Shown here piece by piece: positions 2,796 to 63,641 of a stretch of DNA of 64,000 nucleotides. Position 1 is the stretch's first letter. Every line of letters starts with the position of its first letter. Source of the DNA: Polyangiaceae bacterium (lineage in GTDB: Bacteria; Myxococcota_A; Polyangia; Polyangiales; Polyangiaceae); NCBI GenBank assembly GCA_016712345.1, contig JADJRH010000002.1, positions 8,466-72,465 of the forward strand, in the 5' to 3' direction. The notes under the pieces were generated by a model. It saw only the letters and a list, made by a program, of their open reading frames with translations. It was not told the DNA's origin and did no database searches. A program made the position numbers and the translations under genes.

Positions 2796-2896
2796 CCTTA
2801 ACGTGGCAATCTGCTGCAAGCCCCAAAAGCAAGCAGAGCGGCCGAAGGACGCTCTGCGCAGCGTTGGGGATTGCCAGCAGCATTGCCGAGTTAGGT
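2796..2896 (-). other. attC site 3 (family A)
   Basis: CCTTAAC...GTTAGGT boxes. Arms GGCAATCTGCTGCAAGCCCC / GGGGATTGCCAGCAGCATTGCC. Central CAGAGCGGCCGAAGGACGCTCTG hairpin. Confidence 0.75.
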
Positions 2897-3980
2897 ACCT
2901 GACTCCCAACAAAGTGTTTTCGAATTTGTAACGCCGCACGCCGCGTTTTGAAGGGAGGAGCCGATTCCCAATTGTGTACACGAGGCAAACTCACGAACGC
3001 CGATTCGGTGTGTACACAAATCAGATTTCGAGACGCCAAGCCCACCGAAAACCTCCGCGCGAAACGAATACTACCTGTCTCAACCGGCCTGTCAACGCTT
3101 TCGAGCATGTCACCAGCGCCACCAAAATTGACGCCCACTTCACGCAACGTGGCACACGACGGGAAAGCCAAACCGCGACCACGCGGTTTGGTCCTTGAGA
3201 CAAATCTGAACGCGCCGAAATGTTGGCGAGATGGAAAACCTGCCTCTCCGAAACACAAGCTGGCTTTCGCCGAAGGCGTATAGGAAACGCTGACAATCAG
3301 GCCGTTTCGTCGATCTACCCACGCGCTCCCAACTGCGCGGTCTTCGCTCCGAATGTGTACACGGAGTGTCGACGGACACGAGGCCTCTCAGGGGCGAACC
3401 CGAAGTACAAGTAAGCTCATCCGAAGGCGCAAATGAAGCGTTTTGAGCAACGCTCCGATTCAAAAAAGAACAATGCCGCACCGAATATCAAGCGAAGCGC
3501 GATATTTGTGTACACGCACTGCGGCCACGCGTGCCGGCGTGTTTGCGTTGTTACACGAACGCCCTGAAAAGAAGCGAAGCGCGACAAATGTACCCATAAA
3601 AACCTACCCATGGCCGATTGCGCACATGTGGGTACACACAAACTTTTCGGACGAAATGAGCGCCTATCAAAGCAAAGTGATTTTCAAATGAGTCATACTG
3701 CCCACGATGTGTCGCATCGAACCCAAATCCGTCAACTCCAAATCTACCCACGGTCGGACATGGTTAGATCATGAATTGATAATGGATTAGAAGATACCCC
3801 ACCGGATGAACTACCGGTTGTCGCGGGAGTATAATTTTTGAACTTACCCACCCTCAACCCGAGCGCCGGTGAAGAACGATCAGGACATGCAAAATCCCTC
3901 GCAAAAGAGCCTCCGCGCACCAACTACCCACGTGCGCTTTCCGACAAAATTCAAGCGATTCTACCCACAAAATTCTGTGT
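2897..3980 (-). repeat. ORF-less cassette payload, family N1
   Basis: No ORF is conserved across copies. Shares TTTTCGAATTTGYAACGCCGCAC, TGTGTACAC palindromes, AAGCGAAGCGCGA and CTACCCA motifs with at least 9 other cassettes. Confidence 0.6.
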
Positions 3981-4080
3981 ACCTAACGTTGCGGTGTGCT
4001 GCGGCCGGGCGGCGCAAGCAGGGCGGACGAAGGACGCCCTGCGCAGCAAGCCCGGCCGTCAGTACCAGCGCATGGTTGGG
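3981..4080 (-). other. attC site 4 (family C)
   Basis: ACCTAAC...GTTGGGC boxes. Arms TTGCGGTGTGCTGCGGCCGGGCGG / CCCGGCCGTCAGTACCAGCGCATGG. Confidence 0.7.
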
Positions 4081-5183
4081 CACCTTGTGCTGGATGGGTT
4101 GTTTTCGAATTTGCAACGCCGCACCCCGCGTTTTGAAGGGAGAACGCCACCGCGACAAATGTACACAAGGCCATCTCACTGGCGATGATTGAATGTGTAC
4201 ACTTTTCAGCCTTGCCGCTATCAACCCCACCGTGTCCTCCGCACAATCCGTAGACTATCTGTATCAAAATGGCGGTCAAGCGCAATCTGCCCTACGAGGG
4301 TGATGCACTCGGGGTGCGCGGCCCGAACGCCGACGTCTCAAAATGTCGTGCGTACACTCGACCCACTCCGACACCGAAAATAAATTCATGAGGCCGAGCC
4401 GCGGCCTACGCGCGGCTTGGCCCTTCGAGTGCGCACGAGGGGTATCGAAGGGAGTGAGTTCTCGACGCGAGGGACCGAAATACAAGTTGGCTGACCCGAA
4501 GGCGCAAAATGAAGCGTTTCGCAAACCCGTGCGGCTAGAAAAAATACACCACGGGATCTGACATCCAGCGAAGCGCGATATTGCGTACACGCTCCGCGGC
4601 TGCGCACGCCAGCGTGTTTCCGTTGTGTCGCGGCGCTGCGAAAACAAGCGAAGCGCGACAAGTGTACCCATCAAGACCTGGCCAATGCCATTTCGTACAC
4701 GTGGGTACGCATGAACCTCTCGGGGAGAAATGGACCGCTGACCGATGAAACGAAGCTGATAGTTGAACAACCGCGCCCCCAAACAGAGGCACAGAAATCA
4801 GTCGAATCTCCACCTTCGAATCTACCCACTTCACCAACCAACTTGAACGCAAATTGAAGGTGAAGTGATGCAGCAGCTCCGACACAATTCTGGGTCGCTT
4901 CTTTTGTACAATATGACCGCGGATCTACCCATTCAATTGATCGACGTTGCACCAGTTGAGAAGAGGTAGATGCGAGAGAAAGTCCTTCAAAATGCGCCTC
5001 TACCCACCCGCAGGGCGTCAGTCTCTCTGTAAAAACAAACCTACCCATCGCGCCACTTCATCGAGCCGTTGGTGAGGAACAGTCAAGGTGCGCGCCGACC
5101 TTAAGAAAAGCGTCTCGATCGGTCCACTACCCATACCGCTTTCAGAAAAAAACGAAAACGACTCTACCCACAAAATTCTGTGT
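4081..5183 (-). repeat. ORF-less cassette payload, family N2
   Basis: Homologous to 20081..21179 and 59693..60791. Confidence 0.6.
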
Positions 5184-5312: not shown

Positions 5313-6437
5313 CTACCAATCCTCCTCGCGTATAACTTCTCGCTCAATAAGGAGCGCCAAAGCATCCGCCATGTCGGTGAGTATCAATCGATCTTCTTTG
5401 GGTATGAGAGCGATCCTGCCCCGCTCACTCTGAGATGTCGTGGCCTGGTTATCAATTCGAATGGTAAGGGAACGAAACTCATAGCTCCACGTGCCAACCA
5501 TCCTGGCTTCCGACCCATGAAAATGCGCGTGGAGCTTGTGAGGCGTCGACGTGTACAGCGTTTTACCCGGCAGAAAGCGGAACGCGCATCCTCCTACGCC
5601 GCCCTTGCGAACGGTTCGAAGAATAGACTCCAATACTGCAAGTGACATGTCCGCCAGTCGCGGATCAGCACGAAACTCCAGCTTGCTTTCTTCGACGTAC
5701 ATACGAGCGCCGTAGAAGTAGATGCTTGACTCACCCACGTCGTGTTGGGGGCGACCAATAAAATTCCATTGTACATCGCCTGATTGTTGTTGCATTCCGC
5801 CTTGCAGATACTGGTGCTCGACTCCCAGCTTCTGGAGCGCCTCCGCGGTTATCTCGATGATTCGCGACGGCGGCTCGGTCGCACCGCTCTCGCGAGTGAG
5901 CGTCACACGGATGTCGTCAATGAACGCCGAGTGGCGAGCCAATGCTCCAGTTCTCGCGCCCGACTCGGTGCGAAAGAACTCGTTGTATTCATCTAGTGAA
6001 AATACCTGCGCGTGCTGATGTCCGAACTCCTCATTGGACACCGCGATCAAATTATCTAGGCCGTCGGGCGACGTTATGTTGAATCCTTGAAGGAGGCTGA
6101 TCGGTGGTGGAAGCTGCGTCAGGTCGACCCCGAAGATGCCGACCGGGATGACCCGAACTCCTTTCGCGTAAACGAAGCCAGCTTCGAAGTACACCCACCT
6201 TGAATCGAGTGACGCTGGCGATAAGAAGACGATCATAAGGGTAGCTCGTTCAAGAGCTTCCTGGACCTTGTGTACCCAATTTCGCCCGAGTGGAATGCTC
6301 TGACCGTCACTGGATAGAAACACGTCAATGGTTCCACCGGTCTTCGCCACGAACATCTGCTTTAGACGAGTAAGTCTGTCTTTGTCCCGCGGTGAGTGGC
6401 TGAAGAAAACCGTGGGTTTGCTCTTGCTCTTGCTCAT
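5313..6437 (-). CDS. TIR-domain protein with uncharacterised about 230-aa C-terminal domain
   Basis: 374 aa. N-terminus VFFSHSPRDKDRLTRLKQMFVAKTGGTIDVFLSSDGQSIPLGRNWVHKVQEALERATLMIVFLSPASLDSRWVYFEAG is a bacterial TIR pattern, including the conserved Glu. First gene of a three-gene minus-strand operon inside a single cassette. Confidence 0.75.
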   Translation of the reverse strand: MSKSKSKPTVFFSHSPRDKDRLTRLKQMFVAKTGGTIDVFLSSDGQSIPLGRNWVHKVQEALERATLMIVFLSPASLDSRWVYFEAGFVYAKGVRVIPVGIFGVDLTQLPPPISLLQGFNITSPDGLDNLIAVSNEEFGHQHAQVFSLDEYNEFFRTESGARTGALARHSAFIDDIRVTLTRESGATEPPSRIIEITAEALQKLGVEHQYLQGGMQQQSGDVQWNFIGRPQHDVGESSIYFYGARMYVEESKLEFRADPRLADMSLAVLESILRTVRKGGVGGCAFRFLPGKTLYTSTPHKLHAHFHGSEARMVGTWSYEFRSLTIRIDNQATTSQSERGRIALIPKEDRLILTDMADALALLIEREVIREEDW

Positions 6438-7939: not shown

Positions 7940-8030
7940 GCTGAACGTGGCAATCTGCTGCAAGCCCCAAAAGCAAGCAGAGCGGCCGAAGGACGCTCTG
8001 CGCAGCGTTGGGGTTTGCCAGCAGCATTGC
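7940..8030 (-). other. attC site 6 (family A)
   Basis: Degenerate CTGAAC box at the 5' end, GTTAGGT box at the 3' end. Family A arms. Confidence 0.65.
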
Positions 8031-9068
8031 CGAGTTAGGTACCTGACTCCCAACAGAGTGTTTTCGAATTTGTAACGCCGCACGCCGCGTTTTGAAGGGA
8101 GTAGCCGATGCCCAATTGTGTACACGAGGCAAACCGACGAGCGCCGACTCGGTGTATACACAATTTTGACTTCGCGCTGCCAGACCCACCGAGAACCTCC
8201 GCGCGAAACGAATACTACCCGTCTCAACCGGGCTGTCAACGCTTTCGAGCATGTCACCAGCGCCACCAAAATTGACGCCCACCTCAAGCAACGTTGTCCA
8301 AGATCGGGCAGACCAAACCGCGACGGCCCGCTCTGTCCACGAAAAACGCACGAAGGTGCCGAAATGTTGGCGAGATGAAAACCAACCTGCGCGAAACAGG
8401 AAACGCCTACAAGCGGGCAGTTTCGTTGATCTACCCATGCGCTCCCAACACGGAGTGTCGACGGACACGAGGCCTCTCAGGGGCGAACCCGAAGTACGAG
8501 GAAGCTCATCCGAAGGGGCAAATGAAGCGTTTTGAGCAACGCTCCGATTCAAAAAGAACAATGCCGCACCGAATATCAAGCGAAGCGCGACACTTGCGTA
8601 CACGCACCGCGGCCACGCATGACAGCGTGGTTATGTTGTTGCGCGAACGCCGCAAAAAGAAGCGAAGCGCGACAAATGTACCCATAAAAACCTACCCATG
8701 GCCGACTGCGCACATGTGGGTACACACAAACTTTTCGGACGAAATGAGCGCCTATCAAAGCAAAGTGATTTTCAAATGAGTCATACCGCCCACGGATGTG
8801 TCGCATCGAACCCAAATCCGCCAACTCCAAATCTACCCACGGTCGGACATGGTTAGATCATGAATTGATAATGGATTATGAAGATACCCCACCGGATGAA
8901 CTACCGGTCGTTGTGGGAGTATAATTTTTGAACTTACCCACGCTCAACCCGACCGCCGGTGAAGAACATCAGGATATGCAAAATGCCTCGCAAAAGAGCC
9001 TCCGCGCACCAACTACCCACGTGCGCTTTCCGACAAATTCAAGCGATTCTACCCACAAAATTCTGTGT
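8031..9068 (-). repeat. ORF-less cassette payload, family N1
   Basis: Collinear with 2897..3980. Confidence 0.6.
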
Positions 9069-9235
9069 ACCTAACGTGGCATTCAGCCGCAAAGGCCGCA
9101 TCCCGCAACGTGTCAGGTGGGAAGAGGGAAGCCGCCGAGCCACATCCGTAAAACTTAAAAAAAGTGCTCGGCGGCGCCCCGTGCGAGACGTGACCGGATG
9201 CGACGGCCTTTGTCGGCTGCAATGCCGAGTTAGAC
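9069..9235 (-). other. attC site 7 (family L)
   Basis: ACCTAAC...GTTAGAC boxes. Long palindrome as in site 2. Confidence 0.65.
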
Positions 9236-9565
9236 CTCTGGGGGCTCATATTTCCCACGACCGGGCCAGTGTATTCCGAATCTGAATCTGTAGTCAACGG
9301 TGAAAAAAAGTTACGTTCCATTCCGCACAGTTGAGTCGCCTTGCAGTCTAATTTTTCGAATCGCGTCCATTTTGCGCAACACCCCCAATGGCCTTGATGG
9401 ATACTGACTTTCTGACTTTTCCACTCGACTGTCAGGTTAGAAAGGCGGTGTACACAACCACGGTGTTGTGTCAATCAGTTTATACAAAATAAAACGGAGC
9501 CGCCCGGTGCTTGCAACACCGAACGGCCCCTTGACCTGCCCCCCGCAGCAACGGAGAGCAAGCCC
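9236..9565 (+). promoter_or_regulatory. Conserved about 330-bp leader/promoter region of sigma-factor cassette (paralog 1)
   Basis: Conserved in all six sigma cassettes. Contains GTCAAC-N15-CGTTCC, an ECF -35/-10-like element, and an ACACAAC-N4-6-GTTGTGT hairpin before the RBS. Confidence 0.4.
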
Positions 9566-10324
9566 ATGGAAAAGAATAGTCGTGATTTGTCCGCAGCTCG
9601 AATTTTCGGAGCCGCGAATGCTGTTGAGCCTGAAAATACCGATGAAATCAAGTGGCCGCCAAACGCACCAGACAAGTGGGTCAGGAGCGTGCCGGGTCGC
9701 CGCGGTAACCACCACCCATCGCTCTACTTACCCGAACCACAAGCGCGCGACCTGAATTCACTTCGCCCGGTTATCGAAAGGATCTTGCGCCGACACCGTG
9801 TAACTGCCCGCCACATTCCTGACCTGATTCAAGAGATCTTGGCGGAGTTAATTCGCGTCGCGAGAAGCCGCGGACACAGCAGTCAACCTCCCATCAACTC
9901 AACCGCGTATGGATTTGTTGCGGTGGTAGCCCGTCGCGTGGCGCGAAACCGGTCGGTGCTCAAAGCCCTCGGCGAACGGGAAGATCTCGGTGAATTGTGG
10001 GATCTGCTCGATTGTGAGGAGTCTCCCCATTCAACTTCCACGGGCGCGACTCCACTGGACTTGATAATCGAAAAGGAAGAAGAACAGAAGTTGACCGATC
10101 GACTCGACTGGTTGAGTCAGGCCACGAAGTCGAGATATTGGCGCGCTTTTTACGCCTTCACGATATTGGCCACGCCGATTGAAGACATCGCCGAAAGTGA
10201 AAATGTCAGTCCAGCCTCCATTTACGACCGTGTTCGACGAGCACGCGAAGACATCAAAGCCGCGCTCCAACGCGACAGAGCGAGCCGCGCTCCAAAGATG
10301 GACCTGAAACCATCCCAAACCTGA
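9566..10324 (+). CDS. ECF-type RNA polymerase sigma-70 factor (cassette paralog 1)
   Basis: 252 aa. Region-2-like segment HIPDLIQEILAELIRVARS...YGFVAVVARRVARNRS. Region-4 HTH segment RYWRAFYAFTILATPIEDIAESENVSPASIYDRVRRAREDIKAAL. Six paralogs are present in the window. Confidence 0.7.
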   Translation: MEKNSRDLSAARIFGAANAVEPENTDEIKWPPNAPDKWVRSVPGRRGNHHPSLYLPEPQARDLNSLRPVIERILRRHRVTARHIPDLIQEILAELIRVARSRGHSSQPPINSTAYGFVAVVARRVARNRSVLKALGEREDLGELWDLLDCEESPHSTSTGATPLDLIIEKEEEQKLTDRLDWLSQATKSRYWRAFYAFTILATPIEDIAESENVSPASIYDRVRRAREDIKAALQRDRASRAPKMDLKPSQT

Positions 10325-10492
10325 CCTGCCCAATTCTGGCCCGCCGCCCGCGCGTTTATAAATCCCCAGAAATCCGCCATTGTTATCCAATCCGACAGTC
10401 AAGTCAGATTGTCAGGCCTCCCTGATTGTGTGATTGGGTATGCCGCAAAATCTGAATGGGCTATACCATTTTGGAAAGTGGCTACGTTGCAG

Positions 10493-10593
10493 GTCTAACG
10501 TGGCAATCTGCTGCAAGCCCCAAAAGCAAGCAGAGCGGCCGAAGGACGCTCTGCGCAGCGCTGGGGATTGCCAGCAGCATTGCCGAGTTAGGT
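10493..10593 (-). other. attC site 8 (family A)
   Basis: GTCTAAC...GTTAGGT boxes. Family A arms. Confidence 0.75.
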
Positions 10594-11629
10594 ACCTGAC
10601 GCCCATTAGAGTGTTTTCGAATTTGGAACGACGCACGCCGCGTTTTGAAGGGAGTAGCCGATTCCCAGTTGTGTACACGAGGCAAACGGACAAACGCCGG
10701 TTGAGTGTGTACGCAAATCAGATTTCGCGACGCCAAACCCACCGAAAACCTCCGCGCGAGACGAATACTACCTGTCTCAACCGTCTTGTCAACGCTTTCG
10801 AGCGCGTCGCCAGCGCAACCAAAATTGACGCCCACCTCAAGCAACCTGGTCCAAGATCGGACGTACCAAACCGCGACGCCGACCGGCAGCTCTGGCCACG
10901 AAAAAATGCACGAAGGTGCCGAAATGTTGGCGAGATGAAAACCAACCTGCGCGAAACAGGAAACGCCTACAAGCGAGCAGTTTCGGTGATCTACCCACGC
11001 GCTTCCAACACGGAGTGTCGACGGACACGAGGCCTCTCAGGGGCGAACCCGAAGTACAAGTAAGCTCATCCGAAGGCGCAAATGAAGCGTCTTGAGCAAC
11101 GCTCCGATTCAAAAAGAACAATGCCGCACCGAATATCAAGCGAAGCGCGATATTTGTGTACACGCACTGCGGCCACGCGTGCCGGCGTGTTTGCGTTGTT
11201 ACACGAACGTCCTGAAAAGAAGCGAAGCGCGACAAATGTACCCATAAAAACCTACCCATGGCCGATTGCGCACATGTGGGTACACACAAACTTTTCGGAC
11301 GAAATGAGCGCCTATCAAAGCAAAGTGATTTTCAAATGAGTCATACTGCCCACGGATGTGTCGCATCGAACCCAAATCCGTCAACTCCAAATCTACCCAC
11401 GGTCGGACATGGTTAGATCATGAATTGATAATGGATTAGAAGATACCCCACCGGATGAACTACCGGTCGTCGCGGGAGTATAATTTTTGAACTTACCCAC
11501 CCTCAACCCGACCGCCGGTGAAGAACGATCAGGACATGCAAAATCCCTCGCAAAAGAGCCTCCGCGCACCAACTACCCACGTGCGCTTTCCGACAAAATT
11601 CAAGCGATTCTACCCACAAAATTCTGTGT
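10594..11629 (-). repeat. ORF-less cassette payload, family N1
   Basis: Collinear with 2897..3980. Confidence 0.6.
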
Positions 11630-11796
11630 ACCTAACGTGGCATTCAGCCGCAAAGGCCGCATCCCGCAACGTGTCAGGTGGGAAGAGGGAAGCCGCCGAG
11701 CCACATCCGTAAAACTCAAAAAAAGTGCTCGGCGGCGACCCGTGCGAGACGTGACCGGACGCGACGGCCTTTGTCGGCTGCAATGCCGAGTTAGAC
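11630..11796 (-). other. attC site 9 (family L)
   Basis: ACCTAAC...GTTAGAC boxes. Long palindrome. Confidence 0.65.
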
Positions 11797-12125
11797 CTCT
11801 GGGGGCTCATATTTCCCACGACCGGGCCAGTGTATTCCGAATCTGAATCTGTAGTCAACTGTGAAAAAAAGTTACGTTCCATTCCGCACAGTTGAGTCGC
11901 CTTGCAGTCTAATTTTTCGAATCGCGTCCATTTTGCGCAACACCCCCAATGGCCTTGATGGATACTGACTTTCTGACTTTTCCACTCGACTGTCAGGTCA
12001 GAAAGGCGGTGTACACAACCGCGGAGTTGTGTCAATCAGTTTATACAAAATAAAACGGAGCCGCCCGGTGCGTCAACACCGAACGGCCCCTTGACCTGCC
12101 CCCCGCAGCAACGGAGAGCAAGCCC
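11797..12125 (+). promoter_or_regulatory. Conserved sigma-cassette leader (paralog 2)
   Basis: Same conserved block as 9236..9565. Confidence 0.4.
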
Positions 12126-12884
12126 ATGGAAAAGAATAGTCGTGATTTGTCCGCAGCTCGAATTTTCGGAGCCGCGAATGCTGTTGAGCCTGAAAATACC
12201 GATGAAATCAAGTGGCCGCCAAACGCACCAGACAAGTGGGTCAGGAGCGTGCCGGGGCGCCGCGGTAACCACCACCCATCGCTCTACTTACCCGAACCAC
12301 AAGCGCGCGACCTGAATTCACTTCGCCCGGTGATCGAAAGGATCTTGCGCCGACACCGTGTAACTCCTCGCCACATTCCCGACCTGATTCAAGAGATCTT
12401 GGCGGAGTTAATTCGCGTGGCGAGAAGCCGCGGGCACAGCAGTCAACCTCCCATCAACTCAACTGCGTACGGATTTGTTGCGGTGGTAGCCCGTCGCGTG
12501 GCGCGAAACCGGTCGGTGCTCAAAGCCCTTGGTGAACGGGAAGATCTCGGTGAATTGTGGGATCTGCTCGATTGTGAGGAGTCTCCCCATTCAACTACAA
12601 CGAGCACCACTCCACTGGACTTGATAATCGAAAAGGAAGAAGAACAGAAGTTGACCGATCGACTCGACTGGTTGAGTCAGGCCACAAAGTCGAGATATTG
12701 GCGCGCTTTTTATGCGTTTACCATTTTGGCCGTGCCAATCGAAGACATCGCCGAAAGTGAAAATGTCAGTCCAGCCTCCATTTACGACCGTGTTCGACGA
12801 GCCCGCGAAGACATCAAAGCCGCGCTCCAACGCGACAGAGCGAGCCGCGCGCCAAAGATGGACCTGAAACCATCCCAAACCTGA
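12126..12884 (+). CDS. ECF-type sigma-70 factor (paralog 2)
   Basis: Same architecture as paralog 1, with a few substitutions. Confidence 0.7.
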   Translation: MEKNSRDLSAARIFGAANAVEPENTDEIKWPPNAPDKWVRSVPGRRGNHHPSLYLPEPQARDLNSLRPVIERILRRHRVTPRHIPDLIQEILAELIRVARSRGHSSQPPINSTAYGFVAVVARRVARNRSVLKALGEREDLGELWDLLDCEESPHSTTTSTTPLDLIIEKEEEQKLTDRLDWLSQATKSRYWRAFYAFTILAVPIEDIAESENVSPASIYDRVRRAREDIKAALQRDRASRAPKMDLKPSQT

Positions 12885-13050
12885 CCTTACCCAATTCGAG
12901 CCCGCCGCCCTGCCTTTGCCGGGGCCGACAAAAATAGCCATTTCATTCAATCTGATAGTCAAGTCGGATTGTCAATTTTCCCGATTGGGTGATTGGGAAT
13001 GCCGCAAATCTGAATGGGCTATACCATTTTGGAAAGTGGCTGCGTTGCAG

Positions 13051-13144
13051 GTCTAACGTGGGGCTGTGCTGTGGCCGCGCCGCAGCGCGCGCGGCACCGC
13101 CGCGCGCGCTGCGGCGCGGCCATCTGCACCAGCCCGGAGTTGGG
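13051..13144 (-). other. attC site 10 (family P, GC-rich palindrome)
   Basis: GTCTAAC...GTTGGGG boxes. GCCGCAGCGCGCGCGGCACCGCCGCGCGCGCTGCGGC palindrome. Confidence 0.6.
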
Positions 13145-13228: not shown

Positions 13229-14260
13229 CTATTCCAGCATCACCTCACTGCTGCAATGGGCACAGCGAGTTCCGCCCCAGTACCATATTCCGCCGAATCG
13301 CGCACAGAGCTTGTCACCGACGCGGACCAATGCCCCATACAGCAATGCGCCGAAGATCCACCAGTATGAGCGCCACATCCAGCCAGCCAATAGCGCGAGC
13401 AGCAAGAATGGCAGGCCAGCAGCATCGAGTCCGTCTGCACGAGGATACACGCGGAGGCTCCGCTGGCCGCAGCTCGGACACTCCTTCGGTGCTGTTCGCC
13501 ATGCGATGGTCAGAGTCAGCACGGCGGCAACGAGCGTTCCTGACGCGTATAGCAGCATGCACAGACCCAGCATACGCCAGGTGATGGGATGGAGTCCCTT
13601 GGCGGAGACGAAGCCCGGCTCCATCTCGAGAAACCCGTGCAGGTTGATGGTTTCCCACGTTCCTTCCAACCCCTTCGATGGGAACCCCCAATGGTATACT
13701 TCCAACGACAGCGTGTCGAGCGAACCCATGGCAAACGCCGCGAACGCGAACATGACGCCACCATGGACGCCAAGAGAGAGGAGGGCACTCTGGACCGCTC
13801 GGCAGTGCATGGTGTAGTCTATGGCCCCACCTTGGGTTACGAGACGGTTCGCCCTGAGGGACATGGTCGTGCCGAGTGTAGCGAAGCAAAGCACTGTCAA
13901 GACCAGGAGCCAATTGGCTTCGCGAGCTGCATCGATAGCTACGAGGATGCATCCTAGATGTCCGGCGTAAAGAGCGCCGCTTGTAAATGCCGTTGCGGGC
14001 ACCCAAAGTGGCATAGGCAGATGCTTTATCGTGCTCGGCGAAGCGCGATGCACAGCCGGAGCATCAGTGACGGGGTGCGCGATGGAATGGGTCCAGGCTG
14101 CGCGTGCCTTCACTGAACCGAGACGCCACATGATTGCGCCAAGGAGGATGCCAGCCGTGAGCGCCACGAGCAGCACGCGAAGTGGGGAATTGAGCACGCG
14201 AAGGTACAGGGGATTGAGCATCACCAATCCCCGTCGATGAGTGCGGTCAGGGTGCGCCAC
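13229..14260 (-). CDS. Polytopic membrane protein (about 7 predicted TM segments, Cys-x2-Cys pairs), copy 1
   Basis: 343 aa with several long hydrophobic stretches plus CPSCG and CAHC motifs. An identical copy lies at 37950..38981. Confidence 0.6.
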   Translation of the reverse strand: MAHPDRTHRRGLVMLNPLYLRVLNSPLRVLLVALTAGILLGAIMWRLGSVKARAAWTHSIAHPVTDAPAVHRASPSTIKHLPMPLWVPATAFTSGALYAGHLGCILVAIDAAREANWLLVLTVLCFATLGTTMSLRANRLVTQGGAIDYTMHCRAVQSALLSLGVHGGVMFAFAAFAMGSLDTLSLEVYHWGFPSKGLEGTWETINLHGFLEMEPGFVSAKGLHPITWRMLGLCMLLYASGTLVAAVLTLTIAWRTAPKECPSCGQRSLRVYPRADGLDAAGLPFLLLALLAGWMWRSYWWIFGALLYGALVRVGDKLCARFGGIWYWGGTRCAHCSSEVMLE

Positions 14261-14276: not shown

Positions 14277-14383
14277 CCCCCCCAACGTGGGGTTGTGCTG
14301 CAAGCCCCGAGAGCAAGCAGAGGGGCGCGTCAGCGACGCTCTGCGCAGCGTCGGGGCTTGTCAGAACCAACCCCTGGTTGGAC
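14277..14383 (-). other. attC site 11 (family G)
   Basis: CCCCAAC...GTTGGAC boxes. Arms GGGGTTGTGCTGCAAGCCCC / GGGGCTTGTCAGAACCAACCCC. Confidence 0.7.
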
Positions 14384-14714
14384 CTCTGGGGATTGCTACG
14401 ACCCATGTTTTGGAGCATCGTATTCCGAATCTGAATCTGTAGTCAACTGAGAAAAAAAGTTACGTTCCATTCCGCACAGTTGAGTCGCGTTGCAGTCTAA
14501 TTTTTCGATTCGCGTCCATTTTGCGCGCCGCCCCGAATGGCCCCGATGGATACTGACGCTCTGACATTCCACTCGACTGTCAGGTCAGAAAGGCGGTGTA
14601 CACAACCGCGGCGTTGTGTCAACGAGTTTGTACAAAATAAAACGGAGCCGGCCGGTGCTTGGAACCACCGAACGGCCCCTTGACCTGCGCCCCGCACCAA
14701 CGGAGAGCAAGCCC
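14384..14714 (+). promoter_or_regulatory. Conserved sigma-cassette leader (paralog 3)
   Basis: Same conserved block. Confidence 0.4.
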
Positions 14715-15473
14715 ATGGAAAAGAATAGTCGTGATTTGTCCGCAGCTCGAATTTTCGGAGCCGCGAATGCTGTTGAGCCTGAAAAAACCGATGAAATCAA
14801 GTGGCCGCCAAATGCACCGGACAAGTGGGTGAAGAGCGCGCCGGGCCGCCGCGGCAACCACCACCCATCGCTCTACTTACCCGAACCACAAGCCCGCGAC
14901 CTGAATTCACTTCGCCCGGTGATCGAAAGGATTTTGCGCCGCCACCGTGTAACTCCCCGTCACATTCCTGACCTGATTCAAGAGATCTTGGCGGAGTTAA
15001 TTCGCGTTGCGAGAAGCCGCGGACACAGCAGTCAACCTCCCATCAACTCAACCGCGTACGGATTTGTCGCGGTAGTGGCGCGCCGAGTGGCGCGAAACCG
15101 GTCGGTGCTCAAAGCCCTTGGCGAGCAAGAAACACTCGGTGAATTGTGGGATCTGCTCGATTGTCAGGAATCTCCCCATTCGACTGCGAGGAGTACAACT
15201 CCACTCGATTTGATGATTGAGAAAGAAGAAGAACAGAAGTTGACCGATCGACTCGACTGGTTGAGTCAGGCCACGAAGCCGAGATATTGGCGCGCTTTTT
15301 ATGCATTCACCATTTTGGCCGTACCGATCGAAGACATTGCCGAGAGTGAAAATATCAGTCCGGCCTCGACTTACGATCGGATTCGACGAGCACGCGACGA
15401 CATCAAAGCCGCGCTCCAACGCGACCGGGCGAGCCGTGCACCAAAGATGGACCTGAAGCCATCCCAAACCTGA
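14715..15473 (+). CDS. ECF-type sigma-70 factor (paralog 3)
   Basis: Starts at the conserved MEKNSRDL methionine inside track ORF 14616..15473. Confidence 0.7.
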   Translation: MEKNSRDLSAARIFGAANAVEPEKTDEIKWPPNAPDKWVKSAPGRRGNHHPSLYLPEPQARDLNSLRPVIERILRRHRVTPRHIPDLIQEILAELIRVARSRGHSSQPPINSTAYGFVAVVARRVARNRSVLKALGEQETLGELWDLLDCQESPHSTARSTTPLDLMIEKEEEQKLTDRLDWLSQATKPRYWRAFYAFTILAVPIEDIAESENISPASTYDRIRRARDDIKAALQRDRASRAPKMDLKPSQT

Positions 15474-15637
15474 CCTTCCATTTTCGCCCCGCCTGCGCTC
15501 GCTTTTCTCAACCCGCAAAATGCACTGTACAAAGGGACTTGATGGTCAAGTCGAGTGTACATTTGTGTGCCATTGAGTTGCTGGGTCTGCACCAAATGTC
15601 ACTGGGGTATACCATTTAGAAAGGCGCTATTTTGTAG

Positions 15638-16281: not shown

Positions 16282-17103
16282 CTACCTACCATCATGATCG
16301 TCCTCGTCAGATGACGATGCAGTCGGGAGCCCAGCATGTTCAAAGCAGAAAGCCAGATCTGGGCCGTACGCATGGTCGCCACAGAATGCTGCTCCGCACC
16401 ACTTCGGGTTGAGGTCACCTTCTTCGAGCGGATAATCGCAGTAGAAGTCAGCGAATGCGGAACAATTACCGTTTTCGCAAGTGAGTGATCGCTCGTTGGT
16501 CGCCGTTGGAAGTGGGTAGTATAAAGGGATGTGCTTTATTGAGAACGTGACACTTGGAATATTCGTTAGCGGCGCATCAATACGGCCCTGCGCCAGCGTG
16601 TCAGCGATCGCGAGTTTCAGATACCGTCGTACCAAGAGCAACGGAGGGAAAGCGTTCCTCAATGCGTACCACTCCAGTACGTCGCGAGCGGACTTACTGC
16701 TATTACATGAGCGACACGCCCAAACGAGATTGTCACCGGATTCAGCACCGCCGCGGTGTCTTGGAATCAGGTGATCGCCGTGAAGCTTCGGTGGCGGGGT
16801 TGCACCGCAATAAACGCAACGATCCCTGGGCATCTCGAGGACGTCGGCGAAAAGCGTTCCAAGCTTCATCGTGCCTTGGCAGAGGCCTTTGAAGAGCTTT
16901 GCTCGAACCATCCAACACCCAGCGTCGTATCTGGTGAGGCCGCGCTTTTCGGCGACACCTGCTGCCGCGAGATTTGCGTACGACCAATACAGGAGTTCGC
17001 CGACGGTTTCGATCCGCTTCGATCTATTTCCGGTCGTTCTATACCGACGAATAGGTGCGCCGCCGCTCTCGATTCCGCCCGGGATCTGATTCTGGTTTGA
17101 CAT
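16282..17103 (-). CDS. HNH endonuclease-domain protein with C-terminal Cys-rich region, copy a
   Basis: HNH motif CVYCGATPPPKLHGDHLIPRHRGGAESGDNLVWACRSCNSSK. ATG at 17103 (MSNQNQ); the track's upstream start falls inside an attC. Confidence 0.7.
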   Translation of the reverse strand: MSNQNQIPGGIESGGAPIRRYRTTGNRSKRIETVGELLYWSYANLAAAGVAEKRGLTRYDAGCWMVRAKLFKGLCQGTMKLGTLFADVLEMPRDRCVYCGATPPPKLHGDHLIPRHRGGAESGDNLVWACRSCNSSKSARDVLEWYALRNAFPPLLLVRRYLKLAIADTLAQGRIDAPLTNIPSVTFSIKHIPLYYPLPTATNERSLTCENGNCSAFADFYCDYPLEEGDLNPKWCGAAFCGDHAYGPDLAFCFEHAGLPTASSSDEDDHDGR

Positions 17104-17130
17104 CACACGTATGCGTTCACTTCTTCGTCC

Positions 17131-17233
17131 GCCCAACGTGCTGTTCAGCTGCAAGCGCCGAAAGCAAGCAGAGGGGCGCGTCAGCGACGCTCTGCGCAGC
17201 GTCGGCGTTTGCCAGCTGCAACAGCTGGTTGGG
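17131..17233 (-). other. attC site 13 (family D)
   Basis: GCCCAAC...GTTGGGC boxes. Same arms as site 12. Confidence 0.7.
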
Positions 17234-18598: not shown

Positions 18599-18625
18599 CA
18601 CACGTATGCGTTCACTTCTTCGTCC

Positions 18626-18729
18626 GCCCAACGTGGGGTTGTGCTGCAAGCCCCGAAAGCAAGCAGAGGGGCGCGTCAGCGACGCTCTGCGCAGCGTCGG
18701 GGCTTGTCAGAACCAACCCCTGGTTGGAC
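18626..18729 (-). other. attC site 14 (family G)
   Basis: GCCCAAC...GTTGGAC boxes. Family G arms. Confidence 0.7.
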
Positions 18730-19056
18730 CTCTGGGGATTGCTACGACCCATGTTTTGGAGCATCGTATTCCGAATCTGAATCTGTAGTCAACTGTGAAA
18801 AAAGTTACGTTCCATTCCGCACAGTTGAGTCGCCTTGCAGTCTAATTTTTCGAATCGCGTCCATTTTGCGCACCACCCCGAATGGCTCCGATGGATACTG
18901 ACTTTCGACCGTGCACTCGACTGTCAGGTCAGAAAGGCGGTGTACGCAACCACGGAGTTGTGTCAACGAGTTTGTACAAAATAAAACGGAGCCGCCCGGT
19001 GCTGGAACACCGAACGGCCCCTTGACCTGCCCCCCGCCGAAACGGAGAGCAAGCCC
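18730..19056 (+). promoter_or_regulatory. Conserved sigma-cassette leader (paralog 4)
   Basis: Same conserved block. Confidence 0.4.
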
Positions 19057-19815
19057 ATGGAAAAGAATAGTCGCGATTTGTCCGCAGCTCGAATTTTCGG
19101 AGCCGCGAATGCTGTTGAGCCTGAAAAAACCGATGAAATCAAGTGGCCGCCAAATGCACCGGACAAGTGGGTGAAGAGCGCGCCGGGCGGCCGCGGCAAC
19201 CACCACCCATCGCTCTACTTACCCGAACCGCAAGCCCGCGACCTGAATTCACTTCGCCCGGTGATCGAAAGGATCTTGCGCCGCCACCGTGTAACTCCCC
19301 GTCACATTCCTGACCTGATTCAAGAGATCTTGGCGGAGTTAATTCGCGTTGCGAGAAGCCGCGGACACAGCAGTCAACCTCCCATCAACTCAACCGCGTA
19401 CGGATTTGTAGCGGTCGTGGCCCGTCGAGTGGCGCGAAACCGGTCGGTGCTCAAAGCCCTTGGCGAGCAAGAAACACTCGGTGAATTGTGGGATTTGCTT
19501 GATTGTCAGGAATCTCCCCATTCGACTGCGACGAGTACAACTCCACTTGACTTGATGATCGAAAAAGAAGAAGAACAGAAGTTGACCGATCGACTCGACT
19601 GGTTGAGTCAGGCCACGAAGCCGAGATATTGGCGCGCTTTTTATGCATTCACCATTTTGGCCGTGCCGATCGAAGACATTGCCGAGAGTGAGAATATCAG
19701 TCCGGCCTCGACTTACGATCGCATTCGACGAGCACGAGACGACATCAAGGCCGCGCTCCACCGCGATCGGGCGAGCCGCGCACCAAAGATGGACCTGAAA
19801 CCATCCCAAACCTGA
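19057..19815 (+). CDS. ECF-type sigma-70 factor (paralog 4)
   Basis: Paralog with the same start (MEKNSRDL) and the same region-2 and region-4 motifs. Confidence 0.7.
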   Translation: MEKNSRDLSAARIFGAANAVEPEKTDEIKWPPNAPDKWVKSAPGGRGNHHPSLYLPEPQARDLNSLRPVIERILRRHRVTPRHIPDLIQEILAELIRVARSRGHSSQPPINSTAYGFVAVVARRVARNRSVLKALGEQETLGELWDLLDCQESPHSTATSTTPLDLMIEKEEEQKLTDRLDWLSQATKPRYWRAFYAFTILAVPIEDIAESENISPASTYDRIRRARDDIKAALHRDRASRAPKMDLKPSQT

Positions 19816-19979
19816 CGTTCCATTTTCGTCCCGCCTGCGCTCGCTTTTTTCAATCCCCAAAACGCATTGTACAAACGGACTTGATAGTCAAGTCAAGTGT
19901 ACATTTGTGTGCAATTGAGTTGCTGGGTCTGCACCAAATGTCACTGGGGTATACCATTTAGAAAGGCGCTATTTTGTAG

Positions 19980-20080
19980 GTCCAACGTTGCGGTGTGCTG
20001 CGGCCGGGCGGCGCAAGCAGGGCGGACGAAGGACGCCCTGCGCAGCAAGCCTGGCCGTCAGTACCAGCGCATGGTTGGGC
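19980..20080 (-). other. attC site 15 (family C)
   Basis: GTCCAAC...GTTGGGC boxes. Family C arms. Confidence 0.7.
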
Positions 20081-21179: not shown

Positions 21180-21283
21180 GCCCAACGTGGGGTTGTGCTG
21201 CAAGCCCCGAGAGCAAGCAGAGGGGCGCGTCAGCGACGCTCTGCGCAGCGTCGGGGCTTGTCAGAACCAACCCCTGGTTGGGC
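21180..21283 (-). other. attC site 16 (family G)
   Basis: GCCCAAC...GTTGGGC boxes. Family G arms. Confidence 0.7.
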
Positions 21284-27038: not shown

Positions 27039-27141
27039 TCCAACGTGGGGTTGTGCTGCAAGCCCCGAAAGCAAGCAGAGGGGCGCGTCAGCGACGCTCT
27101 GCGCAGCGTCGGGGTTTGTCAGAACCAACCCCTGGTTGGGC
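27039..27141 (-). other. attC site 20 (family G)
   Basis: GTCCAAC...GTTGGGC boxes. Family G arms. Confidence 0.7.
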
Positions 27142-29376: not shown

Positions 29377-29409
29377 GCCGATAGACGTCTGACGCGATGA
29401 ACACACGGC

Positions 29410-45450: not shown

Positions 45451-45554
45451 ACCTAACGTGGGGTTGTGCTGCAAGCCCCGAGAGCAAGCAGAGGGGCGCG
45501 TCAGCGACGCTCTGCGCAGCGTCGGGGCTTGTCAGAACCAACCCCTGGTTGGAC
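45451..45554 (-). other. attC site 34 (family G)
   Basis: ACCTAAC...GTTGGAC boxes. Family G arms. Confidence 0.7.
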
Positions 45555-45884
45555 CTCTGGGGATTGCTACGACCCAGGTTTTGGAGCATCGTATTCTGAA
45601 TCCGAATCTGTAGTCAACTGTGAAAAAAAGTTACGTTCCATTCCGCACAGTTGAGTCGCCTTGCAGTCTAATTTTTCGATTCGCGTCCATTTTGCGCACC
45701 ACCGCAAATGGCTCCGATGGATACTGACGTTCTGACTTTTCCATTCGACTGTCAGGTCAGAAAGGCGGTGTACACAACCACGGAGTTGTGTCAACGAGTT
45801 TGTACAAAATAAAACGGAGCCGCCCGGTGCTGGAACACCGAACGGCCCCTTGACCTGCCCCCCGCTAGAACGGAGAGCAAGCCC
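45555..45884 (+). promoter_or_regulatory. Conserved sigma-cassette leader (paralog 5)
   Basis: Same conserved block. Confidence 0.4.
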
Positions 45885-46643
45885 ATGGAAAAGAATAGTC
45901 GTGATTTGTCCGCAGCTCGAATTTTCGGAGCCGCGAATGCTGTTGAGCCTGAAAATACCGATGAAATCAAGTGGCCGCCAAACGCACCAGACAAGTGGGT
46001 GAAGAGCGCGCCGGGTCGCCGCGGCAACCACCACCCATCGCTCTACTTACCCGAACCACAAGCCCGCGACCTGAATTCACTTCGCCCACTGATCGAAAGG
46101 ATCTTGCGCCGACACCGTGTAACGGCCCGTCACATTCCAGACCTGATTCAAGAGATCTTGGCGGAGTTAATTCGCGTCGCGAGAAGTCGCGGACACAGCA
46201 GTCAACCTCCCATCAACTCAACCGCGTACGGATTTGTCGCGGTGGTGGCCCGCCGAGTGGCACGAGACCGGTCGGTGCTCAAAGCCCTTGGTGAACAAGA
46301 AACACTCGGTGAATTGTGGGATCTGCTCGATTGTCAGGAATCTCCCCATTCGACTGCGACGAGTACAACTCCACTTGACTTGATGATCGAAAAAGAAGAA
46401 GAACAGAAGTTGACCGATCGACTCGACTGGTTGAGTCAGGCCACGAAGCCGAGATATTGGCGCGCTTTTTATGCATTCACCATTTTGGCCGTCCCGATCG
46501 AAGACATTGCCGAGAGTGAAAATATCAGTCCGGCCTCGACTTACGATCGCATTCGACGAGCACGCGACGACATCAAAGCCGCGCTCCAACGCGACCGGGC
46601 GAGCCGTGCACCAAAGATGGACCTGAAACCATCCCAAACCTGA
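45885..46643 (+). CDS. ECF-type sigma-70 factor (paralog 5)
   Basis: Paralog with the same region-2 and region-4 motifs. Confidence 0.7.
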   Translation: MEKNSRDLSAARIFGAANAVEPENTDEIKWPPNAPDKWVKSAPGRRGNHHPSLYLPEPQARDLNSLRPLIERILRRHRVTARHIPDLIQEILAELIRVARSRGHSSQPPINSTAYGFVAVVARRVARDRSVLKALGEQETLGELWDLLDCQESPHSTATSTTPLDLMIEKEEEQKLTDRLDWLSQATKPRYWRAFYAFTILAVPIEDIAESENISPASTYDRIRRARDDIKAALQRDRASRAPKMDLKPSQT

Positions 46644-50907: not shown

Positions 50908-51011
50908 ACCTAACGTGGCAATCTGCTGCAAGCCCCAAAAGCAAGCAGAGGGGCGCGCCAGCGACCCTCTGCGCAGCGCTGGGGTTTGCCAGCAGCATTG
51001 CCGAGTTAGAC
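50908..51011 (-). other. attC site 38 (family A variant)
   Basis: ACCTAAC...GTTAGAC boxes. Family A arms around the central GAGGGGCGCGCCAGCGACCCTCTG. Confidence 0.65.
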
Positions 51012-51339
51012 CTCTGGGGATTGCACCGACCCATGTTTGGAGCATCGTATTCCGAATCTGAATCTGTAGTCAACTGTGAAAAAAAGTTACGTTCCATTCC
51101 GCGCAGTTGAGTCGCCTTGCAGTCTAATTTTTCGATTCGCGTCCATTTTGCGCGCCACCGCGAATGGCCTTGATGGACACTGACTTTCGATCTTGCACTC
51201 GACTGTCAGGTCAGAAAGGCGGTGTACACAACCGCGGCGTTGTGTCAATCACTTTGTACAAAATAAAACGGAGCCGCCCGGTGTTGGTCGCACCGAACGG
51301 CCCCTTGACCTGCCCCCCGCGTTAACGGAGAGCAAGCCC
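51012..51339 (+). promoter_or_regulatory. Conserved sigma-cassette leader (paralog 6)
   Basis: Same conserved block. Confidence 0.4.
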
Positions 51340-52098
51340 ATGGAAAAGAATAGTCGTGATTTGTCCGCAGCTCGAATTTTCGGAGCTGCGAATGCTGTTG
51401 AGCCTGAAAGTACCGATGAAATCAAGTGGCCGCCAAACGCGCCGGACAAGTGGGTGAAGACCGCGCCCGGTCGCCGCGGTACGCACTACCCATCGCTCTA
51501 CTTACCCGAACCACAAGCGCGCGACTTGAATTCACTTCGCCCGGTTATCGAAAGGATCTTGCGCCGACACCGTGTAACTCCCCGCCACATTCCTGACCTG
51601 ATTCAAGAGATCTTGGCAGAGTTAATTCGGGTTGCGAGAAGCCGCGGACACAACAGTCAACCTCCCATCAACTCAACTGCGTACGGATTTGTTGCGGTGG
51701 TAGCCCGTCGGGTAGCGCGAAACCGGTCGGTGCTTAAAGCCCTCGGCGAACGGGAAGACCTCGGTGAATTGTGGGATCTACTCGATTGTGAGGAGTCTCC
51801 CCATTCAACTACAACGAGCACCACTCCACTCGACTTGATAATCGAAAAGGAAGAAGAACAGAACTTGACCGATCGACTCGACTGGTTGAGTCAGGCCACG
51901 AAGTCGAGATATTGGCGCGCTTTTTACGCCTTCACGATATTAGCCACGCCGATTGAAGACATTGCCGAGAGTGAGAATATCAGTCCGGCCTCTACTTACG
52001 ATCGCATTCGACGAGCCCGCGAAGACATCAAAGCCGCGCTCCAACGCGATCGGGCGAGCCGCGTACCAAAGATGGACCTGAAACCATCCCAAACCTGA
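51340..52098 (+). CDS. ECF-type sigma-70 factor (paralog 6)
   Basis: Starts at the conserved MEKNS methionine (ATG at 51340) inside track ORF 51193..52098. Confidence 0.7.
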   Translation: MEKNSRDLSAARIFGAANAVEPESTDEIKWPPNAPDKWVKTAPGRRGTHYPSLYLPEPQARDLNSLRPVIERILRRHRVTPRHIPDLIQEILAELIRVARSRGHNSQPPINSTAYGFVAVVARRVARNRSVLKALGEREDLGELWDLLDCEESPHSTTTSTTPLDLIIEKEEEQNLTDRLDWLSQATKSRYWRAFYAFTILATPIEDIAESENISPASTYDRIRRAREDIKAALQRDRASRVPKMDLKPSQT

Positions 52099-62627: not shown

Positions 62628-63641
62628 TCAGGGAAACGTGGTCAATTGCGGTATGGGGGTAGGGATATCGAGGGGGCTTTTGACGGCGAGGGGGCCGCTG
62701 TTGAGGACGTGGGTATAGATCATGGTGGTGGAGACGTCGCGGTGTCCGAGGAGTTCTTGGATGGTGCGGATGTCGTAGCCGGCTTCGAGGAGGTGGGTAG
62801 CAAAGGAGTGGCGGAGGGTATGGCAGCCGGTGCGTTTGTGAATGCCGGCGAGGTGTGCGGCATGGGAGACGGCGCGTTGGAGTACGGTTTCGTGGAGGTG
62901 GTGGCGGCGCCATTGTTGGGTAGGTTCGTGGTAGTAGTGGCGGGTTGCAGGGAAGACCCAATGCCAGGACCAGGAGTGTGGGGCGCTGGGTATTTTCGCG
63001 GCGATGTTGTTGGGGACTTCCACGCAGGCGTGGCCCTGTTCGCGGTCATATTCGAATTGGGCGTGGGTTTCTTTGAGGTGGTGGCGAAGGCGTTCGACGA
63101 GGCGGGCGGGGATCATGGTTTTACGGTCTTTGTTGCCTTTGCCGGAGTGAATGTGGAGTTCGCGTTTTTCAAGGTCGAGGTCTTTGACGCGGAGGGTGCA
63201 GCATTCCATGAGGCGGAGTCCGGCGCCGTAAATGAGGGCGGCCATGAGTTGAGTGGTGCCTGTCAGTTCTTGGAGGAGGGCGGCGACTTCGCGTTGTGTG
63301 AGGACGACGGGGAGTTTGAGGGGTCGTTTGGCGCGGGCGAAGGGGCCGAGTTTGTCGAGGGGTATGCGGAGGACGTGGAGGTAGAGGAAAAGGAGGGCGG
63401 AGAGGGCTTGGTTTTGGCTGGAAGCGCTGACGTTTTTGTCGCGGGCGAGGAAGGTTAGAAATTTTTCGATATGGGTAGATCCGAGTTGATGGATGGGTCT
63501 GTTGTGGTAGTGGAGGTAGCGAAGGGTCCACAAGACGTAGGATTCTTCGGTGCGGCGGCTGTAATGGAGTCTTCGCACGGCATCGCGAAGCGTGCCGAGG
63601 AGGTTTCCATAGACGGGCGGGGGTATGGGTTGAAGGTCCAT
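62628..63641 (-). CDS. intI: Integron integrase IntI (tyrosine recombinase with IntI-specific extra domain)
   Basis: 337 aa. Close collinear similarity to IntI1, including [71 protein letters not shown], and the IntI-specific insertion. ATG at 63641. Confidence 0.95.

Follow-up and report, generated by a model that had tools for sequence, protein, structure and literature searches.

Reverse-oriented integron cassettes in Polyangiaceae carry an ECF-like sigma factor gene with a predicted cis-antisense RNA

We analyzed a 64,000-nt stretch of DNA (hereafter the window) from contig JADJRH010000002.1 of a Polyangiaceae metagenome-assembled genome (MAG). The window is a chromosomal integron in which six cassettes each carry a gene for a divergent sigma-70 family protein resembling the extracytoplasmic function (ECF) sigma factors. 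Each unit is probably a cassette with an ECF-type sigma gene on the bottom strand of the attC site, equipped with its own leader and with a cis-antisense small RNA that would lie across the translation start of the sigma gene.

To delimit the cassettes, we searched for attC sites with a hidden Markov model and then with a covariance model, both built from the array's own repeats. The covariance model places 47 sites in the window, all co-oriented, which are 73-167 nt long (mostly ~100 nt) and score 45-110 bits on the + strand and at most 42 bits on the - strand. In their consensus fold, 22 of 29 pairs show compensatory changes, and the additional unpaired bases fall on the 3' arm when the + strand is read. 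Extrahelical bases mark the R''-L'' arm of an attC site, and on the recombinogenic bottom strand this arm is the 3' one; the + strand is therefore the bottom strand.

The six sigma cassette bodies occupy the intervals between consecutive attC sites at 9236-10492, 11797-13050, 14384-15637, 18730-19979, 45555-46806 and 51012-52263, flanked by sites scoring 51-107 bits. Each body holds a single open reading frame (ORF) of 252 aa on the + strand, and the six proteins are 92-98% identical; a first-pass annotation of the window had described six such cassettes, and their bounds agree with the attC intervals. The ORFs lie at 9566..10324 (copy 1), 12126..12884 (copy 2), 14715..15473 (copy 3), 19057..19815 (copy 4), 45885..46643 (copy 5) and 51340..52098 (copy 6), with the 252 aa of copies 3 and 6 counted from the conserved ATG. 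Their products are identical to MBK8254996 (MBK8254996.1, copy 1), MBK8254999 (MBK8254999.1, copy 2), MBK8255001, MBK8255004, MBK8255038 and MBK8255042 of the Polyangiaceae MAG, GenBank entries that automatic annotation lists as sigma-70 family factors.

The sigma ORFs are antisense to the array, as had been proposed. This follows from three observations: the + strand is the attC bottom strand, the attC sites score on that strand, and the integrase gene and all Pfam-supported cargo ORFs lie on the - strand. The integrase gene, intI (62628..63641, -), encodes an integron integrase that scores 395.7 bits on TIGR02249, where the cut-off is 265, and has Pfam Phage_integrase and SAM-like domains, and the gene shares its strand with the cargo, namely a TIR gene (5313-6437), a SIR2-like gene (46939-48582) and an HNH gene (16282-17154). 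The sigma ORF thus departs from the typical promoterless, array-sense cassette ORF both in lying on the bottom strand and in having a constrained leader of ~330 nt.

In a DNA alignment, homology among the sigma cassettes extends from the left-hand R'' box to the right-hand R' box, while the attC sites themselves differ. The site of copy 1 (9069..9235, with the + strand as bottom strand) is 167 nt long with a long variable stem; it scores 51.1 bits (E 4.6e-12) and folds as DNA at -51.3 kcal/mol (z -7.0). Copy 2 has the same 167-nt type (11630..11796, 50.9 bits), copies 3-5 share one 104-nt type (14280..14383, 94.0 bits; 18626..18729, 95.8 bits; 45451..45554, 93.5 bits), and copy 6 has another (50908..51011, 93.2 bits). 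These differing attC partners bear out the earlier view of the copies as mobile paralogs rather than one tandem duplication, except for copies 1 and 2: the block 7944-10503, which comprises a gene-less cassette and a sigma cassette, repeats at 10497-13061 with 94% identity, so these two copies stem from one tandem duplication that took in both cassettes and are not independent insertions. Beyond attC, the sigma bodies show no similarity to other cassettes of the window. None of the six contains a second conserved ORF and they therefore offer no candidate for an anti-sigma gene, in agreement with the first-pass annotation.

The six ORFs are real, selected genes. Variable columns fall at codon positions 1, 2 and 3 in the numbers 17, 12 and 83, and the pairwise ratio of nonsynonymous to synonymous substitution (dN/dS) is 0.04-0.14 at dS of 0.13-0.36, which shows that the paralogs are under selection and not pseudogene-like. 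Within the ORFs there are also stretches where third positions vary less than the 6.6 in 20 expected: 1 of 20 at codons 176-195 (10091-10150), and 2 of 20 at codons 1-20 and again at codons 11-30 (together 9566-9655). The deficit of synonymous changes in codons 1-30 and 171-195 is no more than suggestive; in codons 1-30 it fits the antisense promoter described below.

We assessed the identity of the protein through its family. Taken singly, a window protein matches TIGR02937 over model positions 8-165 of 165, that is at full length, at E 7e-6 (7.3e-6 for copy 1) and 25.7 bits against a cut-off of 42.9; PF08281 at E 0.005 and 16.9 bits against 25.7; and PF04542 at E 0.11 and 12.7 bits against 24. 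A word-index protein search returned only the protein's own cluster, and an exhaustive search among 1.84 billion proteins returned 51 representatives at ~30% identity. Among 28 aligned family members, Sigma70_r4_2 (PF08281) and TIGR02937 are each matched by 15 and Sigma70_r2 (PF04542) by nine, the best PF04542 match reaching E 9e-8, and the other NCBIfam matches of the family are nearly all to ECF sigma factors, one CobN-fusion member excepted. A profile of the family matches Mycobacterium tuberculosis SigH at 1.5e-10 and Escherichia coli RpoE at 2.2e-10, with an alignment that spans regions 2-4. The earlier claim that sigma regions 2 and 4 are recognizable therefore holds with the family profile and the fold, but not at curated thresholds from a single sequence.

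The predicted fold agrees with this assignment. The model that AlphaFold gave with the family alignment reaches a predicted local distance difference test score (pLDDT) of 76.8, as against 38 for the six paralogs alone, and contains two confident helical domains, at residues 57-140 (helices at pLDDT 80-95) and 163-241 (pLDDT above 90), with low confidence in the N-terminal 55 residues and the linker. In a Foldseek search of the PDB with this model, ranks 1-7 and 9-11 are ECF sigma structures, each at probability 1.00. The 252-aa protein has only these two folded domains and lacks sigma-1.1 and sigma-3, which is the sigma-2 plus sigma-4 layout of ECF factors such as E. coli RpoE and M. tuberculosis SigH, and with these it shares a DxPDxxQE-type region 2.2 motif and a TIYxRxxxAR region 4.2 helix in addition to the full-length profile and fold matches. 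Unlike them, it scores below the Pfam and TIGRFAM cut-offs and has a ~55-aa N-terminal extension, in which an M-x3-[ST]-R-x6-[ILV]-F-G-L motif is followed by a variable proline-rich linker, and a long linker between sigma-2 and sigma-4. A co-encoded anti-sigma factor is common, though not universal, among ECF sigma factors; the family described here is in contrast very small, cassette-borne and without a nearby anti-sigma gene. As a check for membership of a defense system, the sigma protein gave no PADLOC model match, and in PHROG only a weak match to a sigma family. The profile and fold results support placing the window proteins in the sigma-70 superfamily as a rare, divergent ECF-like family, for which binding to core RNA polymerase is predicted.

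The second component of each unit lies in the leader. The 75-80 nt upstream of the sigma ATG are near-identical across lineages whose proteins are only ~30% identical and whose loci range in GC content from 55% to 73%. Read on the strand opposite the sigma gene, this proximal leader folds into a hairpin P2', an AA linker, a hairpin P1' and a U-rich tract, in that order, and both hairpins are rich in G.U pairs. In copy 1 (9478..9570, -) the element folds at -55.3 kcal/mol; P2' occupies 9533-9564 with a 14-bp stem and a tetraloop at 9547-9550, P1' occupies 9496-9530 with a 14-bp stem, its loop being 6-8 nt long among the window copies, and the U-tract lies at 9486-9495, so that P1' and the tract form a predicted intrinsic terminator. 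An RNA covariance model of the element (R2) recovers all six window copies on the - strand at 93-105 bits: 9478..9570 (104.5 bits), 12039..12130 (99.0), 14626..14719 (92.8), 18970..19061 (100.2), 45798..45889 (100.1) and 51252..51344 (100.2). The same model recovers a divergent member from outside its training set (locus L002, 9272-9365, E ~1e-10) and a weaker one in locus L009.

Several lines of evidence assign this structure to the antisense strand. Folding of the proximal leader is significant only on the strand opposite the sigma gene, with z of -6.2 on the antisense against -0.9 on the sense strand in the window, -5.7 against -0.8 in locus L003, -3.8 against -1.8 in L001, -2.6 against -1.4 in L010 and -6.8 against -0.3 in L004. 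In an alignment of 15 sequences, 95.9% of cells are paired, compared with 43-50% when partners are slid. About 94 of these cells are G.U pairs, which on the sense strand become C.A mismatches and would leave it ~74% paired. Changes on one side of a stem are compatible with pairing on the antisense strand but not on the sense strand, and in two pairs both bases have changed, as from U.G to G.U. In four lineages P1' and the T-run after it are flagged as terminator-like, again on the strand opposite the sigma gene. The conserved leader hairpin of the first-pass annotation is therefore present and deeply conserved, but its fold is significant only as antisense RNA. Rfam yielded no match to positions 9000-10700, even with E values up to 1 allowed, and across the whole window no match that reached the gathering score. 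A riboswitch, T-box or other 5' untranslated region (UTR) structure on the sense strand was considered and rejected, given the lack of an Rfam match, the insignificant sense fold and the lack of sense covariation.

The position of the element relative to the sigma gene suggests its function. The 5' arm of P2' carries CUCC, and CAU lies directly 5' of the stem; these are the complements of the sigma GGAG (9553-9556) and AUG, so that the predicted RNA of ~80 nt would be complementary to both the Shine-Dalgarno sequence and the start codon of the sigma mRNA. A TAnnnT box stands at a fixed offset in every lineage, as TATTCT, TATTGT, TAGCCT, TAACCT or TAGTGT, within sigma codons 3-5; in copy 1 it is TATTCT at 9573..9578 (-), 4 nt upstream of the complement of the start codon, CAT. 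On the sense strand, all 15 sequences have A at +8, T at +12 and A at +13 while codon 4 encodes N, A, V or T, and because these positions are fixed despite the variation in codon 4, the box fits a putative -10 element of an antisense RNA promoter. Taken together, the proximal leader element is best read as a predicted cis-antisense RNA gene.

Some observations weigh against a sigma factor under the control of an antisense RNA. The stems are almost invariant, so covariation rests on few lineages and mainly on one divergent sequence: once L002 is included, two-sided changes are seen in 10 of 28 pairs and none of 500 shuffles attains any of the measures, but the alignment was fitted to model R2 and that one sequence gives most of the compensatory changes. 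The stems are in fact more invariant than pairing requires, which suggests a further constraint. Our scans found no convincing -35 element beside the TAnnnT box, and both the sigma mRNA and the antisense RNA, with their ends, are predictions. On the protein side, the window sequences miss the curated cut-offs of TIGR02937, PF08281 and PF04542, and neither of the two leader motifs discussed below occurs in any other cassette of the window, so that no target is visible there.

While the stems are nearly fixed, the loops are hypervariable. The proximal leader is a series of invariant stems broken by hypervariable positions, found in the P2' tetraloop and the P1' loop; columns 9547-9549 each show all four bases among the six copies, and nearly every copy examined has its own tetranucleotide in the P2' tetraloop. 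Loci L001 and L011 hold the same cassette in two MAGs; the two 1183-bp bodies differ at five positions only, four of which are the contiguous tetraloop (TACT at L001 10060-10063, GGAA in L011). This difference is a block change and not an accumulation of point mutations. Such a block change could reflect selection for copy-specific loops, by analogy with the antisense-RNA incompatibility determinants of plasmids, or it could stem from a mutational process at the hairpin tip. Inspection of the sequences found neither complementarity of the hairpin loop to the variable tetranucleotide nor inversion of the loop.

The distal part of the leader is also constrained. Third codon positions, taken as neutral, differ between copies by 0.162 on average over all pairs; on this scale block A (9275..9371) differs by 0.030 and block B (9432-9470) by 0.051, with a spacer between them (9372-9431) at 0.174; across the six copies the blocks are ~5x less variable than synonymous sites. 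The conserved leader of ~330 bp noted earlier is thus confirmed as non-coding, constrained sequence. The leaders contain no small ORF with a conserved frame: loop lengths of 6, 7 or 8 nt and a 1-nt deletion in locus L006 disrupt the frames, and we rejected a small or upstream leader ORF because frames are not conserved. Block A holds GTCAAC-N15-CGTTCC at 9293-9319, and within the window GTCAAC-N-CGTT is confined to the six sigma leaders; the first-pass annotation had reported the N15 form in each, which is true of five copies, while copy 4 has N14. An 18-mer of block A, TTCGCGTCCATTTTGCGC, is shared with the leaders of loci L010 and L012b.

ECF sigma factors commonly regulate themselves from AAC...CGT promoters, and the motif in block A could make this an ordinary positively autoregulated ECF gene, with a leader promoter of this type and a sense 5'-UTR hairpin in place of an antisense RNA. 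Its presence in the most constrained block of the leader, and only in the six leaders, favors such an arrangement, as does the frequency of such self-promoters among ECF factors. However, the spacing changes in copy 4, leaders of the other sigma subfamilies contain no AAC-N14-18-CGT, and the hairpins are insignificant on the sense strand, with G.U pairs that exist on the antisense strand only. The motif also overlaps, at GTCAAC, a - strand sigma70-like match, TTGACT-N18-TACACT, itself found once against 0.7 expected by chance. Being lineage-restricted and variable in spacing, the AAC/CGT element is a weaker candidate for a self-promoter than had been supposed, and we regard autoregulation without an antisense RNA as unlikely, while an autoregulatory distal promoter could exist alongside the antisense RNA.

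A second leader motif, CCCCTTGAC-N15-ACGGAG, was considered as a regulon promoter and rejected, since within the window it occurs in the six leaders only; that it belongs to the antisense hairpin P2' and the adjoining linker is the better explanation. A copy with one mismatch, CCCCTTGAC-N16-CGGAG, is found at L001 6436-6465 (-), equivalent to L011 5347-5376 (+). It lies on the array-sense strand just ahead of the attC site, at the end of an Mrr-like cassette, and is marginal, with ~0.08 expected by chance over all DNA scanned.

The arrangement of sigma gene, RNA element and reverse-oriented cassette recurs in three other Polyangiaceae MAGs (JAWKRI, JAWKRD and JAWKRE), where three sigma subfamilies are found, each alone between two attC sites on the bottom strand. 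In one case (MAG GCA_041389705), a homologue at 30% identity (P0052) stands alone between two attC sites, in an array of nine co-oriented sites, on the strand opposite toxin-antitoxin (TA), Mrr and AAA cargo. A scan of one genome per GTDB species with a DNA pattern of the leader hairpin gave four matches only, in two Polyangiaceae MAGs besides GCA_041389705; all precede a sigma homologue of 220 or 229 aa that is alone between two attC sites on the bottom strand, and in one case adjacent cassettes hold two different sigma subfamilies. Protein patterns run over GTDB genomes and viral contigs missed the sigma relatives that the hairpin DNA pattern did detect. A further variant copy of the leader hairpin lies at L010 3300-3480, and the source genome itself holds 11 protein accessions of the sigma family on two contigs.

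The element is not limited to integrons. Metagenome homologues (L003-L007, GC 65-73%) and L002 carry the same leader element, and no attC sites were found around them. In L002 (9272-9821), outside integrons and beside a tyrosine integrase, the divergent antisense RNA precedes a truncated ORF with sigma-2 only, which is followed by a full-length family member (P0034). Since homologues without attC also carry it, the leader element belongs to the sigma gene and not to the integron, and it is the unit of sigma gene and element that has been repeatedly carried as a reverse-oriented cassette.

We propose the following model for the sigma gene and its antisense RNA. Being encoded on the attC bottom strand, the sigma gene is independent of the integron promoter Pc, and its mRNA would start within the distal leader. 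The antisense RNA would be made from the TAnnnT promoter or as the 3' end of array-sense read-through, and may pair with the sigma 5' UTR, Shine-Dalgarno sequence and AUG to lower translation or stability of the mRNA, in the way that SymR acts on symE and RNA-OUT of IS10 on RNA-IN. The P1' terminator may also end array-sense read-through at each sigma cassette. Once made, the sigma protein would redirect core RNA polymerase to promoters. Of this model, the data show selection on the coding sequence, the homology and fold of the sigma family, how the cassettes are built and oriented, an RNA structure specific to one strand, its terminator and the recurrence of the unit in other genomes; that the two RNAs are transcribed, that pairing represses the sigma gene, and that the protein binds RNA polymerase and has targets is what we infer.

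Small structured cis-antisense RNAs over a translation start are known from SymR/symE and from RNA-OUT/RNA-IN of IS10, the latter providing multicopy control. The predicted RNA resembles these in having a putative promoter just inside the 5' end of its target ORF and complementarity to the Shine-Dalgarno sequence and start codon. It differs in its target, a sigma factor, in its two 14-bp hairpins with hypervariable loops and in its lack of an Rfam match, and its transcription is predicted.

Such a pair could form an RNA-controlled addiction or array-control module similar to a type I TA system, in which a harmful sigma factor, sequestering or redirecting RNA polymerase, is held in check by a labile antisense antidote, and each dispersed copy answers only to its own antidote through its copy-specific loop. 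The array would then be stabilized in the manner of type II TA cassettes in Vibrio. Self-promoted TA cassettes are found in sedentary chromosomal integrons, dispersed and sometimes reversed (PMC13108822), and those of the Vibrio cholerae superintegron likewise have their own promoters, many dispersed copies and a possible reverse orientation (PMC13108822); the sigma cassettes, with 11 accessions, are dispersed, reverse-oriented and predicted to bear promoters in the same way. Overlap of the antisense RNA with the Shine-Dalgarno sequence and AUG, as in SymR/symE, hypervariable loops on invariant stems and the absence of an anti-sigma gene also point in this direction. Unlike a TA cassette, however, the sigma cassette pairs one transcription-factor gene with an RNA rather than a protein toxin with a protein antitoxin; its toxicity is conjectural and, like differential RNA stability, purely presumed. 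Most of the type I toxins known are small peptides of the membrane, the sigma cassettes gave no PADLOC and no TA-family matches, and sigma-RNA pairs exist outside integrons too. We therefore hold an addiction or array-control role to be quite improbable; were it true, the sigma factor would act as a toxin that stabilizes a large array or as a private transcription switch independent of Pc.

The strong terminator predicted on the array-sense strand of every copy raises another possibility, that the cassettes punctuate transcription: P1' would halt array-sense read-through and a - strand promoter in block A would restart it into the downstream cassette, with the sigma factor secondary. The promoter-like match TTGACT-N18-TACACT/TACGAT (9297..9268, -), which has equivalents in the other five leaders, faces its own attC site from within the most conserved block. 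In Vibrionaceae superintegrons, promoter-bearing gene-less cassettes and antisense-promoter cassettes can silence or activate their neighbors (PMC11014356). The sigma cassettes are similar in bringing transcription signals into an array, but they also encode a protein regulator and their array-sense element is a predicted small RNA ended by a terminator. Punctuation as the main role has slightly poorer prospects still: the promoter-like match is at chance level (1 against 0.7 expected), scans of the other subfamilies' leaders did not show it, the sigma ORF is under strong purifying selection, and RNA and sigma gene travel together outside integrons.

The protein might instead be a sigma-like helix-turn-helix (HTH) DNA-binding protein of a small mobile element, with the hairpins as DNA recognition sites or element ends. 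Stems more invariant than RNA pairing demands, a 4-nt block that changes as a unit between otherwise identical cassettes, and weak matches of a few family members to transposase-type HTH families would all be consistent with this. We find it very unlikely, since the ECF match is full length and takes in both region 4 and region 2, the latter with its core-binding motif, every occurrence of the element comes with the gene, neither target duplications nor a second end are seen, and the strand asymmetry of G.U pairs favors RNA over double-stranded DNA. Finally, high copy number and the tandem two-cassette duplication might suggest decaying, selfishly amplified pseudogene repeats without current function, an alternative excluded by the codon-position pattern and the low dN/dS (0.04-0.14 at dS up to 0.36), to which six of six ORFs intact at 252 aa and leader blocks ~5x less variable than synonymous sites may be added.

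The remainder of the array provides the setting of the sigma cassettes. In the classical integron layout the integrase gene is divergent from the array; here intI is transcribed towards the array on the cargo strand, an 'inverted integrase' layout. The TIR and SIR2-like genes and a 290-aa ORF present in three copies (16282-17154, 17777-18649 and 21160-22032), the first of which matches Pfam HNH, look like defense genes. A 343-aa ORF without a Pfam match occurs at 13229-14260 and 37950-38981, in two cassettes that are 99% identical and have short (~95 nt), GC-rich (79-80%) attC sites. In a related array, a VapBC toxin-antitoxin cassette (L001 4481-5088) is also reverse-oriented.

Nearly half of the cassettes in the window (22/47) belong to one diverged family, mostly ~1.1-1.3 kb long and 68-92% identical to one another, whose substitutions show no codon periodicity in a sampled set and which appear gene-less. 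They are found at 2799-3981, 3982-5183, 7944-9069, 10494-11630, 19981-22299, 27039-31932, 34172-36641, 39002-40183, 43120-45451, 48632-50908, 53413-54558 and 55865-62100. A cassette of this family is the left-hand neighbor of four of the six sigma cassettes.

Integron cassettes are usually seen as promoterless cargo expressed from Pc, with toxin-antitoxin modules as the self-expressed exception. In the arrays described here, the repeated cargo is a predicted regulator of RNA polymerase, always inverted and always accompanied by a conserved, predicted antisense small RNA, in several Polyangiaceae genomes and three subfamilies. A full-text literature search found no report of sigma-factor integron cassettes, of type I TA systems in cassettes or of the antisense RNA described here; an ECF-like sigma factor, a cis-antisense small RNA and a self-expressed cassette are each of a known kind, and it is their combination and recurrence that are new. 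For integron biology these cassettes are a candidate new class, regulatory and self-regulated, and they bring with them a new predicted structured RNA family, absent from Rfam and tied to a new ECF-like sigma subfamily. They may also make it practicable to study how an antisense RNA, in place of an anti-sigma protein, controls a sigma factor. Should the loops confer copy specificity, or the module stabilize arrays, the sigma cassettes would be relevant to the maintenance of very large silent arrays.

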